From Nitrospiraceae bacterium (GTDB taxonomy: Bacteria > Nitrospirota > Nitrospiria > Nitrospirales > Nitrospiraceae): a stretch of DNA of 30,893 nucleotides. Each line of letters opens with the position of its first letter. Position 1 is the first letter of the stretch. The notes beneath the pieces were generated by a model. It was not told the DNA's origin. It made no database searches and saw nothing but the letters and a program-made list of their open reading frames with translations. This document shows, piece by piece, positions 6,814-11,907 of the stretch. The DNA lies in NCBI GenBank assembly GCA_041563795.1, contig JBFGRH010000001.1, forward strand, positions 1-30,893, given 5' to 3'. Made by a program: the position numbers and the translations under genes.

Positions 6814-7293
6814 TCAGACGGGCCGGAACTCAGCCGGGGAGACCATCCGGTCCTTGATCCAAAAGGCCCGGAGGTCCGGGGCGGACTTATTTTCCAGGGA
6901 GATGATGAGATAGGCCGCGTCCGGATAATAGGCCAGGCCCACGTCGGTGGCGGATGGGTAGGCCGGTGAATGCGTATGGGAATGATAAATCACAGTCAGG
7001 TCAAGGTTCCGCTGGCGCATGTCCTTGAACGCCGCCAGCATCTCCTTGGGGTCCATAAAGTAGGCGACCTCGGCCTTGGTGGAATCCGACAGGGCTCCCA
7101 ACTGCTTGACGTCGGCGCCGTCGAAGACCTCCACCGCCCTGGCATCCTTCGCCACGCTGTTGGTGATCCGGTAGTGCCGAGTGATGGTCCCGTTGGACCC
7201 CGCCAGCAGCCCGCAGCACTCGAACGGGTCCAGTTCTCGCGCATGGGCGATCATCTCGTCCAGGATTGTGCGAGGAATCTTCAGCAGGGACAC
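6814..7293 (-). CDS. mec: JAMM/MPN+ metallopeptidase (Mec/QbsD/HcyD-like sulfur-carrier processing protease)
   Basis: Motif E(CCG)...YHSHTHSPAYPSATD matches E-x(n)-HxH-x7-S-x2-D; last gene of the Ubl/E1 operon. Confidence 0.9.
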   Translation of the reverse strand: MSLLKIPRTILDEMIAHARELDPFECCGLLAGSNGTITRHYRITNSVAKDARAVEVFDGADVKQLGALSDSTKAEVAYFMDPKEMLAAFKDMRQRNLDLTVIYHSHTHSPAYPSATDVGLAYYPDAAYLIISLENKSAPDLRAFWIKDRMVSPAEFRPV

Positions 7294-7294
7294 G

Positions 7295-8098
7295 TCAAAT
7301 CGTGCAGGAAACGGCGTAGTCGCCGCTGAGATTTTTGATCGTTTGGTTGGGACCGCAGAGCCGGCAGTGGGGGTCCTTGGGCCGTGACACCTTCCTGAAC
7401 TTCATGTCCAGCGCATCGTAGATCAGGAGTTTGTCGGCCAGGGTATCGCCGATCCGGAGAATTTCCTTGATGGCTTCCGCCGCCTGCAGCACGCCGATGG
7501 TGCCCGCCAGCACGCCCAGGACGCCGGCTTCCTGGCAGTTGGGCACGAGTCCGGCCGGAGGCGGTTCCGGATAGAGGCACCGGTAGCAGGGGAAGCCCTC
7601 GTGCGGCTTGATGGTCGTCAACTGGCCTTCGAAGCGGAAGATGCTGCCCGAGATCAGCGTCTTCTTCGCGAAGAAGCAGGCATCGTTGATCATGAACCGC
7701 GTCGAGAAATTGTCCGACCCGTCCAGCACCATGTCGTAGTCCTGGATCAATCCCATGATGTTGTCGGCGCTTACGTGATACTGGTAGGTCTTGATCGTGA
7801 TGTCGGGGTTCAGGGCCGCCAGCGTCTGCCGGCCTGATTCGACCTTGGGAACCCCGATCCTGGCGGTGGTGTGCAGGATCTGCCGTTGCAGGTTGGACAG
7901 GTCCACCACGTCGCCATCCACCAACCCGAGCGTGCCGATGCCTGCCGCGGCCAGATAGAGCGCGGCCGGAGACCCCAGCCCGCCGGCGCCGATCACCAGG
8001 ACCTTGGCCTGTGACAGCTTCTTCTGCCCCTTGCCGCCCACGTCGTTCAGGATGATGTGGCGGCTGTACCGCTCCATCTGGGCTTCGGTGAATTCCAT
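7295..8098 (-). CDS. moeB: MoeB/ThiF/HesA-family E1-like adenylyltransferase #2, no rhodanese domain
   Basis: RYSRH, GAGGLG, DLSNLQRQ, DGSDNF, CYRC...CRLC Zn site, NCQEAG. ATG overlaps the NIL stop (TGATG). Confidence 0.93.
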   Translation of the reverse strand: MEFTEAQMERYSRHIILNDVGGKGQKKLSQAKVLVIGAGGLGSPAALYLAAAGIGTLGLVDGDVVDLSNLQRQILHTTARIGVPKVESGRQTLAALNPDITIKTYQYHVSADNIMGLIQDYDMVLDGSDNFSTRFMINDACFFAKKTLISGSIFRFEGQLTTIKPHEGFPCYRCLYPEPPPAGLVPNCQEAGVLGVLAGTIGVLQAAEAIKEILRIGDTLADKLLIYDALDMKFRKVSRPKDPHCRLCGPNQTIKNLSGDYAVSCTI

Positions 8099-8337
8099 CA
8101 CTCCACCACGTTGAGTTCGATGGGGTCCACGAAGACCCCTTTTTTCTTCATGCCTTCGATGGCCCGCTCGATCTCGGCCGTCTCGCCGCTCAGCTCCAGG
8201 TCCATCCAGCCGGTGGTCTCACGCACGTCCGCCCGGCGGATGTTCGTGACCACCTTGTACTCGTGGCCGATCTGGTAGATGATCGGTTCCTTGATTTTTT
8301 GCTCGGGGAAACGAATATGGAATCGCAGGTGTGCCAT
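8098..8337 (-). CDS. Stand-alone NIL-domain protein, 79 aa
   Basis: EPIIYQIGHEYKVVTNIRRADV...GWMDLELSG...IERAI matches the NIL (ACT-like) pattern; no Cys and no ferredoxin fusion; TGATG overlaps on both sides. Confidence 0.8.
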   Translation of the reverse strand: MAHLRFHIRFPEQKIKEPIIYQIGHEYKVVTNIRRADVRETTGWMDLELSGETAEIERAIEGMKKKGVFVDPIELNVVE

Positions 8338-8612
8338 CAGCGGCCCCCCGCAATGGCCGGCACGATCGAGACCTCATCGCCATCCTTGAGGGAGGTCTCC
8401 TTGCCCTTGAGAAACCGGATGTCTTCCTCGTTGACGTAGATGTTCACGAAGCGGCGCAGCTCCCCCTTGTCGTCGCACAGCCGGTCTTTCAAACCCGGGT
8501 GCGCCGAGTTCAATGTCTCGATCATTTCGGTGATGGTCGCCGCCGTGGCCTCCACTTCGCCCTGGCCTTTGGTCAGGGGTCGCAGGGGAGTGGGAATACG
8601 AACTTTGATCAC
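8337..8612 (-). CDS. MoaD/CysO-like ubiquitin-like sulfur carrier, 91 aa, ending AIAGG-R
   Basis: VKVRIPTPLR...FVNIYVNEEDIRFL...LKDGDEVSIVPAIAGGR. GTG start overlaps the thrC stop (GTGA). Not listed separately in the ORF track; it is the tail of ORF 8337-9407. Confidence 0.9.
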   Translation of the reverse strand: MIKVRIPTPLRPLTKGQGEVEATAATITEMIETLNSAHPGLKDRLCDDKGELRRFVNIYVNEEDIRFLKGKETSLKDGDEVSIVPAIAGGR

Positions 8613-10712: not shown

Positions 10713-10714
10713 GG

Positions 10715-11644
10715 TCAGATATTGAAATACTTCTCGATGCTGATGTACCGCTCGCCCGTGTCACAGAGAATCGTCACGATGTTCTTGCCGGGGCCGAGTT
10801 CCTTCGCCAGCTTCTGCGCGGCAAACACGTTGGCGCCGGCGGAGATGCCCACGAGCAGCCCTTCCTTCTTCGCCAGCAGCTTGGCCGTCTGATAGGCCTC
10901 GTCGTCCGTCACGGTGACCACGCCGTCCAGAACCGAGCGGTTCAGCACCTTGGGAACGAATCCCGCGCCGATGCCCTGGATCTTGTGCGGGCCCGGATCC
11001 CCGCCGGACAGGACCGGCGAGCCGGCCGGCTCGACTGCGATCACCCTGATGTTCTTGTTGCGCTCCTTGAACACCTCGCCGCAGCCGGTGATCGTGCCGC
11101 CGGTTCCGACGGCCGCCACGAAGGCGTCAATCTTGCCGTCCAGCGCCTCCCAGATCTCCAGCGCCGTGGTTTTCTTGTGCATCGCGGGGTTCGCCGGGTT
11201 CGAAAACTGATCCGGCATGAAATAGGCCGGATTCTGCGCCACGATGCTCTCCGCTTCCTTGATGGCTCCCTTCATGCCTTCCCAGGCCGGCGTCAGCACG
11301 AGCTGCGCCCCGTAGGACGACAGCAGGCTGGCCCGCTCCATGCTCATGCTCTCCGGCATGATCAGGATCAGCTTGTAGCCACGCACGGCCGCCACCAGGG
11401 CCAGGCCGATGCCGGTGTTGCCGCTGGTCGGCTCGACGATCGTGCCCCCCGGCTTGAGCTTGCCCTGCCGCTCCGCCTCGTCGATCATGTTGAGGCAGAT
11501 CCGGTCCTTGACGCTCCCGCCCGGGTTGAAAAACTCGACTTTTCCGTAAATGGCTCCCCCGCCTTCCGGGGTGAGCCGATTCAGGCGGACAAGGGGGGTC
11601 CGTCCGATCATTTCGGTGATGTCTTTGTGCGCTCGAACCGTCAT
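10715..11644 (-). CDS. cysK: Cysteine synthase A (O-acetylserine sulfhydrylase), 309 aa
   Basis: IGRTPLVRL, NPGGSVKDR (PLP Lys), PTSGNTG, QFSNPAN, GTGGT, HKIQGIGAGF. ATG overlaps the thiS-like stop (ATGA). Confidence 0.95.
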   Translation of the reverse strand: MTVRAHKDITEMIGRTPLVRLNRLTPEGGGAIYGKVEFFNPGGSVKDRICLNMIDEAERQGKLKPGGTIVEPTSGNTGIGLALVAAVRGYKLILIMPESMSMERASLLSSYGAQLVLTPAWEGMKGAIKEAESIVAQNPAYFMPDQFSNPANPAMHKKTTALEIWEALDGKIDAFVAAVGTGGTITGCGEVFKERNKNIRVIAVEPAGSPVLSGGDPGPHKIQGIGAGFVPKVLNRSVLDGVVTVTDDEAYQTAKLLAKKEGLLVGISAGANVFAAQKLAKELGPGKNIVTILCDTGERYISIEKYFNI

Positions 11645-11841
11645 CGGCCACCGCCCATGTAAAAGAGAAACTCCAACGCGTCGCCTTCCTTGACCTGGGT
11701 GGTGGCAAGGGTGTCCCGCTCCACCATGGCGTCGTTCAACTCGACGGCGACCATGTGCGGGTCGATATTTTTCGCTTTCAGCAGGTCCAAAACCGTCGCC
11801 CCCTGGACCTCTTCCGGCTTCCCGTTGATTTTGACCTGCAT
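11641..11841 (-). CDS. thiS: ThiS-like ubiquitin-like sulfur carrier, 66 aa, ending YMGGG-R
   Basis: MQVKINGK...VAVELND...VKEGDALEFLFYMGGGR; ThiS length and pattern. Alternative GTG start at 11844. Confidence 0.88.
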   Translation of the reverse strand: MQVKINGKPEEVQGATVLDLLKAKNIDPHMVAVELNDAMVERDTLATTQVKEGDALEFLFYMGGGR

Positions 11842-11877
11842 CACTCCAACTTGGCTTCAAGATTGAGGAATTTCGAC

Positions 11878-11907
11878 ACGATAACAAGCAAGCCGCGCCC
11901 TTGTCAA
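11878..11907 (-). promoter_or_regulatory. sigma70-type promoter of the sulfur-carrier operon
   Basis: Minus strand TTGACA (11907-11902), 18 nt, TG-T-TATCGT (11883-11878), an extended -10. Confidence 0.6.

Follow-up and report, generated by a model that had tools for sequence, protein, structure and literature searches.

In Streptomyces albulus, MetM (UniProt A0A059WBP2), a homolog of the threonine synthase ThrC, converts O-phospho-L-homoserine and the thiocarboxylate of the carrier protein MetO to homocysteine (Hasebe 2024, according to the accounts of that work in PMC13759103 and PMC12172450). GapMind 2026 gives MetO, MetM, Mec, and MoeZ as experimentally supported and, within methionine synthesis, includes a diverged Mec for Dissulfurispira thermophila (PMC13759103). 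The thrC product of Microcystis aeruginosa is 51.6% identical to S. albulus MetM and has a MetO-like neighbor (47%); an S-adenosylmethionine (SAM) riboswitch precedes metM in Streptomyces and is absent for the Microcystis thrC (PMC12172450). Here, we describe an eight-gene operon of a Nitrospiraceae bacterium, found at positions 6814 to 11907 of a 30,893-nucleotide stretch of DNA (GenBank assembly GCA_041563795.1, contig JBFGRH010000001.1; "the window" denotes this whole stretch), in which a predicted homocysteine module of the MetM/MetO kind is joined to a putative cysteine module. The GapMind entry for D. thermophila, which we take to be a member of the Nitrospirota, suggests prior application of the MetM/MetO route to this phylum.

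With MetM/MetO, the homocysteine module shares a ThrC-homologous pyridoxal phosphate (PLP) enzyme whose gene adjoins that of a small, GG-ending carrier of the MoaD/ThiS family, a need for an E1 and a JAMM peptidase, and O-phosphohomoserine as presumed substrate. SAM riboswitches precede members of the family in Actinomycetota and other phyla, and the module would make up for the absence of MetB/MetY enzymes. In contrast to the described system, which draws its E1 and JAMM peptidase from a separate cysO cluster, both are encoded here within the same operon. The E1 is devoid of a rhodanese domain, and a conserved NIL neighbor is added; the module is also joined to the cysteine module, and no riboswitch lies in the window. 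Compared through the Microcystis homolog and gene context rather than through the MetM sequence, the homocysteine module is predicted to belong with MetM/MetO. The cysteine module resembles the CysO/CysM/Mec/MoeZ system of Mycobacterium tuberculosis. Here, too, a ubiquitin-like (Ubl) carrier thiocarboxylate is predicted to supply sulfide to a PLP sulfhydrylase of fold type II, with an E1 charging the carrier and a JAMM hydrolase (Mec in M. tuberculosis) releasing the amino acid. However, the module fails two features that define that system: its sulfhydrylase is of the CysK type and not the O-phosphoserine-specific CysM, and its E1 does not bear a rhodanese domain. It differs further in having a 67-aa ThiS-type carrier with a masked GGG-X end. 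In Wolinella succinogenes, the HcyS thiocarboxylate feeds homocysteine synthesis, for which MetY and O-acetylhomoserine are used, and the extra C-terminal residue of HcyS is trimmed by HcyD, a JAMM-type peptidase, before E1 charging. The present carriers are likewise made with extra C-terminal residues needing removal; unlike the HcyS/HcyD/HcyF/MetY system, no MetY (Cys_Met_Meta_PP) enzyme was found here among 31 genomes, and the operon contains no sulfite reductase.

On balance, the operon is probably the organism's route for bringing sulfur into both cysteine and homocysteine via protein thiocarboxylates. Its eight genes lie on the minus strand, from 11844 to 6814, in the following order from 5' to 3', preceded by one promoter-like site:

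11878..11907, minus strand, promoter-like site of the sigma-70 type (TTGACA, 18 nt, TATCGT; TG before the -10 element)
11641..11844, minus strand, ThiS-like sulfur carrier, 67 aa (PF02597; TIGR01683, 57 bits)
10715..11644, minus strand, CysK-type O-acetylserine sulfhydrylase, 309 aa (TIGR01139, 462 bits; cutoff, 351)
9885..10712, minus strand, E1a, MoeB/ThiF-type adenylyltransferase, 275 aa (PF00899 only, without a rhodanese domain)
8609..9867, minus strand, ThrC-like PLP enzyme (MetM-like), ~419 aa (PALP domain; TIGR00260, 288 bits)
8337..8612, minus strand, MoaD-like carrier (MetO-like), 91 aa, GTG start (PF02597; moaD_arch, SAMP1)
8098..8337, minus strand, stand-alone NIL-domain protein, 79 aa (PF09383, 53 bits)
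7295..8101, minus strand, E1b, MoeB/ThiF-type adenylyltransferase, 267-268 aa (PF00899 only, without a rhodanese domain)
6814..7293, minus strand, JAMM/Mec-like metallopeptidase (Prok-JAB), 159 aa (PF14464, 81 bits)

Successive genes are joined by ATGA, 2 nt, 17 nt, GTGA, TGATG, TGATG, and 1 nt, the NIL/E1b junction being TGATG provided that E1b begins at the ATG at 8098 and not at the GTG at 8101. The promoter-like site fits 10 of 12 consensus positions and is a candidate by consensus match only. A first-pass annotation of this DNA had reported eight coupled genes, the same junctions, and a single promoter; the open reading frame list, direct reading, and the Pfam and NCBIfam matches agree with the genes and junctions, and the one promoter-like site agrees with the third statement to the extent of its consensus match. 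The flanking genes likewise agree with its observation that neither thiG, moaE, a desulfurase, a rhodanese, nor a sulfite reductase lies beside the operon; none of these neighbors has an obvious connection to sulfur.

Within module B (ThrC-like, MoaD-like, NIL, and E1b), which would constitute a MetM/MetO-type homocysteine synthase, E1b would adenylate the C-terminal Gly of the MoaD-like carrier, and a sulfide or persulfide donor encoded elsewhere would turn the adenylate into a thiocarboxylate. The ThrC-like enzyme would then eliminate phosphate from O-phosphohomoserine and add the carrier thiocarboxylate at the gamma carbon, after which homocysteine would be freed from the carrier and passed to MetH. 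Module A (ThiS-like, E1a, and CysK) would form cysteine in a comparable way, by beta-replacement on O-acetylserine. The JAMM peptidase would first remove the residue(s) or fused protein beyond Gly-Gly of both carriers and then probably hydrolyze the carrier-amino-acid adducts, as Mec does. All of these chemical steps, along with carrier preference and the function of NIL, are predicted from sequence and gene context. A gamma-replacement on O-phosphohomoserine by a carrier thiocarboxylate was the central proposal of the first-pass annotation; it has gained genomic support, but it is not new, since MetM/MetO had already been described in S. albulus.

The synteny survey called for in the first-pass annotation recovered the identical eight-gene order in all 18 Nitrospirales relatives compared, which span four families, and the same eight genes in this order in eight further named Nitrospirales assemblies, including Nitrospiraceae and Candidatus Manganitrophaceae. 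A ThrC-like gene of the operon type was present in 90 of the 118 high-quality Nitrospirota genomes sampled. The eight-gene arrangement is not a product of chance, and the operon is real, old in its order, and almost certainly functional.

The ThrC-like enzyme passes the generic TIGR00260 thrC cutoff, hence its public label "threonine synthase." Nonetheless, it is distinct from the housekeeping enzyme, as the first-pass annotation had supposed. All 30 relatives carry two thrC-family genes above the model cutoff: a canonical thrC outside the operon (~330 bits, open frame of ~355-390 aa) and the ThrC-like gene within it (~290-300 bits, ~420-430 aa). In a maximum-likelihood tree, 98 ThrC-like sequences were split from 15 canonical ones by a fully supported, very long branch, and identity between the ThrC-like protein and the canonical ThrC of the same lineage was 37%. 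The two types have the PLP-lysine motif SFKDR and the STGN motif in common. The ThrC-like proteins additionally possess an N-terminal CxxC...CxxC zinc ribbon, the four Cys of which were invariant in a diverse 13-member alignment and which was absent from all 15 canonical ThrCs. No structure of the ThrC-like type was found in the PDB, where the nearest chains are ordinary threonine synthases whose alignment starts only at residue 54-58. Assignment as a cysteate synthase was ruled out by a score far under the model cutoff (TIGR03844, 64.6 bits; cutoff, 324.9).

The supply of O-phosphohomoserine was also considered. In families f1 and f3 only, an apgM-like "proposed homoserine kinase" gene (TIGR02535; e.g., G001:C42:18612-20865 and G017:C1:2041365-2043653) comes next after the canonical thrC, with matches mostly below the curated cutoff. 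Neither this kinase nor a GHMP-type ThrB was found in families f2 and f4, and no GHMP-type thrB was found in any of the 31 genomes. In Thermodesulfovibrio and other Nitrospirota (L106, L114, and L116), a ThrC-like/MoaD-like/NIL trio is followed directly by the canonical thrC, so that both threonine synthase paralogs share one cluster.

Linkage of the ThrC-like gene to a carrier was assessed in 80 loci on contigs from one genome per species, with 58-96% identity. In most of these, a MoaD-like gene directly follows the ThrC-like gene; in the window, the two overlap by GTGA. The set spans Cyanobacteriota, Actinomycetota, Chloroflexota, Verrucomicrobiota, Planctomycetota, Omnitrophota, Thermodesulfobacteriota, Nitrospinota, and Nitrospirota, and the same pairing occurs in two metagenomic representatives at 50-51% identity. 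Among 28 non-cyanobacterial, non-Nitrospirales loci scanned for riboswitches, 12 have a SAM riboswitch (RF00162, 56-96 bits) upstream of the ThrC-like gene, within ~240 nt of its start in 11 cases and at 414 nt in L089. These loci belong to Actinomycetota, Chloroflexota, Verrucomicrobiota, and one metagenome-assembled genome (MAG) placed in Myxococcota; the ThrC-like family is thus tied to methionine in those lineages. The proposed association of the paralog with both a MoaD-like carrier and methionine is therefore supported by the 80-locus pairing and the riboswitches.

Other routes to homocysteine were sought with PF01053 (Cys_Met_Meta_PP) at an E value of ≤1e-20 in the 31 related genomes, of which 23 are at least 90% complete and several are closed. 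No enzyme of this family (MetB, MetC, MetY, or MetZ) was retrieved from any of them, while the same search found one in 13 of 14 control genomes. The organism's own genome, which is 74% complete, gave only weak PF01053 matches (~27 bits), and MetX was not found in it. These genomes thus yielded no trans-sulfuration or MetY/MetZ enzymes, in line with the trans-sulfuration-independent supply proposed in the first-pass annotation. MetH, the anticipated recipient of homocysteine, is present: its N-terminal 390 residues are encoded by the last gene of the window (29661-30893, plus strand), the gene being split across two contigs with its other part at G000 C191:1899-4454. The distance between MetH and the operon in relatives is ~18-22 kb.

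These data also bear on whether the ThrC-like protein could be a second threonine synthase or a threonine deaminase, with the neighboring Ubl system unrelated to methionine. Such a role would accord with the score above the TIGR00260 cutoff, the retained PLP-lysine and STGN motifs, the reported threonine synthase/deaminase activity of the Microcystis homolog (PMC12172450), and the fact that the ThrC-like gene is the only thrC match in the organism's own incomplete genome. We consider it very improbable, given that all 30 relatives encode a separate canonical thrC, that the ThrC-like clade is deeply separate, and that the upstream elements in four phyla are SAM riboswitches and not threonine/isoleucine controls. 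Linkage to a MoaD-like carrier is, moreover, near universal, and no other homocysteine route was found in the 31 genomes. A role in homocysteine formation accordingly remains the preferred reading for the ThrC-like enzyme.

This assignment matters because the principal nitrite oxidizers of soils, oceans, and treatment plants are Nitrospira and its relatives. Standard annotation does not account for their methionine synthesis: no MetB/MetY-family enzyme was found, and the present gene is labeled "threonine synthase." Assignment to MetM/MetO would fill the methionine gap in roughly three of every four Nitrospirota genomes sampled, and it would carry the Streptomyces pathway into at least eight phyla. 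No new chemistry is involved; the operon most likely represents a new arrangement of known chemistry and corrects the threonine synthase label. We know of no characterization of a single operon that unites both modules with two E1s, one JAMM peptidase, and NIL.

The C termini of the two carriers point to a proteolytic step. In the window, the ThiS-like carrier ends in GGG followed by one masking Arg, and the MoaD-like carrier ends in AIAGG followed by one Arg. In relatives, the ThiS-like proteins end in an invariant MGGG, after which the last residue is R, C, A, T, Q, or W or is lacking, while the MoaD-like proteins have 0 to 10 variable residues beyond GG. Whole proteins may also follow. In family f4, the ThiS-like reading frame continues into CysK immediately beyond GGG (L036:1580-2692; L043), and in G011 the MoaD-like sequence runs in frame into NIL (L042:4450-4962; AIAGG-TV-M...), although the latter is a single genome and possibly a sequencing error. 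Because variable tails and whole-protein fusions follow Gly-Gly, proteolysis would be needed to expose the C terminus before E1 adenylation. The single JAMM enzyme, whose metal-site motif is intact (E...HxHx7SxxD, appearing as E...HSHTHSPAYPSATD in the translation of the gene), is the obvious candidate for trimming both carriers. By analogy with Mec, it probably also has a second role in hydrolyzing the carrier-amino-acid adduct. A terminator-like hairpin at 6880-6867 was discounted, as it lies inside the JAMM gene.

A carrier, an E1, and a JAMM peptidase could instead form chiefly a Ubl protein conjugation system of the SAMP/UbaA/desampylase type, in which the JAMM enzyme removes Ubls from their targets. 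The MoaD-like protein just reaches the SAMP1 cutoff (60.7 versus 60), and archaeal SAMPs and Thermus TtuB serve in both sulfur transfer and conjugation. The E1s and the JAMM protein match UbaA (322-336 versus 450) and desampylase (73 versus 130) as well, but these scores are far below the cutoffs, and the conserved linkage to two PLP amino acid synthases, together with the Ubl-enzyme fusions, indicates sulfur transfer. We therefore regard conjugation as an improbable main function of the operon, which may have a side role in it.

For the cysteine module, the operon CysK was the only CysK/CysM-family match in 24 of 30 relatives, and CysE was present in 28 of 31 genomes, the organism's own included. 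On these grounds, the operon CysK is taken to be the housekeeping O-acetylserine sulfhydrylase, and, being a CysK-type enzyme in the presence of CysE, it is expected to use O-acetylserine and not O-phosphoserine. The cysM models TIGR01138 and NF008735 scored the protein at 299 bits, below their cutoffs of 394 and 413. NIR_SIR-type reductases, which are possible suppliers of sulfide, are also present. The main rival to the thiocarboxylate route for both amino acids is therefore that CysK uses free sulfide as its usual donor. Only module B would then use a thiocarboxylate, and the ThiS-like protein and E1a would be cotranscribed with an ordinary sulfide-dependent CysK for some other sulfur transfer, namely, to thiamine, tRNA thiolation, or molybdopterin. 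The canonical CysK score, the CysM scores below cutoff, CysE, and reductases able to supply sulfide are all as this account would have them; furthermore, since most relatives have no E1s besides E1a and E1b, housekeeping clients are probable for E1a.

Against this stand the gene arrangements. A separate thiS adjoins thiG and a separate moaD adjoins moaE, while the ThiS-like and CysK genes overlap by ATGA in the window and their order is conserved in relatives. In-frame fusions of ThiS and CysK (PF02597 plus PF00291) were found in ~30 clusters among the matches listed, from independent Nitrospirota assemblies; these fusion proteins (P0274-P0301 and others) measure 355-386 aa. A JAMM-ThiS-CysK trio also occurs in one planctomycete. 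On this evidence, which is indirect but not weak, CysK probably takes sulfur from the ThiS-like carrier, and we consider a purely sulfide-dependent CysK rather unlikely, though not negligibly so.

The two E1s are 55% identical and form two separate, well-supported clades in an E1 tree, both older than the split of the Manganitrophaceae. The E1a clade was seen only in Nitrospirales. In contrast, E1s encoded beside ThrC-like/MoaD-like/NIL modules in Chloroflexota, Thermodesulfobacteriota, Nitrospinota, and one MAG placed in Myxococcota group with E1b. Neither protein reached the MoeZ model cutoff (321-329 bits; cutoff, 647), and neither has a C-terminal rhodanese domain. The operon E1s were the only ThiF-family matches (E ≤ 1e-10) in 20 of 30 relatives, closed genomes included, so the two channels are not fully dedicated. 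The proposal of two parallel, carrier-specific modules therefore stands in part: E1b clusters with the E1s of other module B loci and E1a lies apart, but the E1s are not private to their modules. The operon shares its carrier and E1 families with the ThiS/ThiF/ThiG and MoaD/MoeB/MoaE systems but contains neither thiG nor moaE. Dedicated pairs lie outside it on other contigs of the same genome (thiS-thiG on C54 and moaD-moaE on C124). Since no other E1 was found in most relatives, the two operon enzymes probably act on the thiamine ThiS and the molybdopterin MoaD as well. There is a precedent in mycobacteria, where the MoeZ-type E1 for CysO also serves molybdopterin synthesis (PMC3227635). A third gene of the ThiS/MoaD family (86 aa) is located at G000 C86:399-1530 (L130), where it overlaps the start of a UbiE-like SAM methyltransferase gene.

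An extension of the thiocarboxylate route, which we find possible though somewhat doubtful as a whole, is that the operon forms the hub of all protein-thiocarboxylate sulfur traffic in Nitrospirales. The two E1s would be the only ones of the cell and would share out the carriers by class, E1a serving ThiS-type carriers (cysteine and thiamine) and E1b serving MoaD-type carriers (homocysteine and molybdopterin). As parts of the same joint proposal, NIL would be an obligatory and hitherto unrecognized third component of MetM/MetO-type synthases in many phyla, and the JAMM peptidase would mature Ubl-enzyme fusion precursors in the way that ubiquitin fusions are processed.

Outside the Cyanobacteriota, the NIL gene adjoins the ThrC-like/MoaD-like pair in most lineages, whichever comes first and regardless of whether an E1 lies nearby (Nitrospirota, Planctomycetota, Omnitrophota, Verrucomicrobiota, Chloroflexota, Thermodesulfobacteriota, and one MAG placed in Myxococcota). 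The NIL domain of MetN binds methionine. NIL/ferredoxin proteins are required in the unrelated DUF39 homocysteine pathway (PMC5764234), found in methanogens and Desulfovibrio, and in both settings the NIL domain is genetically tied to homocysteine formation. The present NIL protein, however, has no ferredoxin domain and has a ThrC homolog and a Ubl carrier as partners; no DUF39 gene was seen among the operon genes or their flanks, and the genome beyond them was not searched for one. Complex prediction of NIL with the ThrC-like and MoaD-like proteins gave a score of 0.00 and provides no evidence for or against binding. NIL as a methionine sensor that replaces the SAM riboswitch was rejected, because both occur together in four loci (L075, L093, L105, and L125), so NIL does not simply take the place of the riboswitch. 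Our best guess is an accessory or regulatory role for NIL, as a subunit that binds methionine or homocysteine.

Several points weigh against a thiocarboxylate route that serves both amino acids. With a CysK-type sulfhydrylase and CysE present, sulfide-dependent cysteine synthesis would be expected to work without a carrier, and the operon E1s do not have the rhodanese domain of MoeZ. Membership in the MetM family would follow from a two-step identity chain, in which the Microcystis novacekii protein, a member of the ThrC-like clade, is 62% identical to the query, and from common gene context. The Microcystis homolog is reported to act mainly as a threonine synthase/deaminase in vitro, and methionine was not raised in vivo (PMC12172450). 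An Rfam scan of the window returned no RNA family and hence no riboswitch match. The separate canonical thrC, for which the first-pass annotation had advised a check, was confirmed in all 30 relatives but was not found in the organism's own 74%-complete genome, where the ThrC-like gene is the only thrC match; a search of this bin likewise turned up no apgM-like candidate homoserine kinase (TIGR02535). Finally, all of the operon's proteins are known from their genes alone.

The ThrC-like frame in the window is broken by a 1-nt deletion near 9434-9435, which leads to a premature stop at 9409-9411. We attribute this most likely to an assembly artifact. A copy of the gene on contig C210 reads straight through the site, five database proteins with 98-99% identity are intact at 419 aa, and the gene is intact in all 18 relatives. 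In the four public sequencing runs that best cover this stretch, the deletion was never seen; the only contigs crossing the site, in three of them (~99% identical), differ by a T>G substitution and an additional G, which brings back the reading frame. The frameshift is thus most likely not biological, and the gene for which the first-pass annotation envisaged a "repair" most likely reflects an assembly error. Programmed frameshifting or a split gene with an ATGA restart was considered and rejected, as the intact database proteins and public-run contigs favor an assembly error. A real frameshift, with module B decaying in this organism, would be the literal reading of a window sequence that is one base short and contains the premature stop. 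It is exceedingly improbable in view of the extra base in the near-identical contigs, the intact proteins and relatives, and the perfectly preserved reading frame downstream of the deletion. Contig ends in the public runs also cluster at 9437-9472, as expected of a strain-variable spot that breaks assemblies.

Contig C210 of the bin (4090 bases; L002 and L005) contains syntenic ThiS-like, CysK, and E1a genes, the start of the ThrC-like gene, and the same upstream genes as the window. The possibility that it represents a second, paralogous operon was rejected, because its collinearity with the window extends across the upstream genes, with ~78% of nucleotides identical; C210 is thus read as the DNA of a co-binned relative. 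The bin is therefore most likely heterogeneous, with C210 derived from a related organism.

The window is a contig with 63% G+C from a metagenome bin of 2.03 Mb in 269 contigs (74% complete, with 3.6% contamination), and the closest named database proteins to those of the window are from Nitrospiraceae. The operon is flanked by genes for an ABC exporter, a DUF6901 protein, a PLD-like protein, and an FAD monooxygenase. The DUF6901 protein is encoded just downstream of the operon (5056-5781, plus strand). A 124-aa secreted-looking protein without a family match is encoded at 6318-6692 (minus strand) and has its own promoter-like site. A dispersed element of ~117 bases occurs twice in the window, at 17474-17588 and 28624-28740, in copies that are 84% identical and inverted relative to each other; it is also present at the end of C210 (C210:3974-4090).

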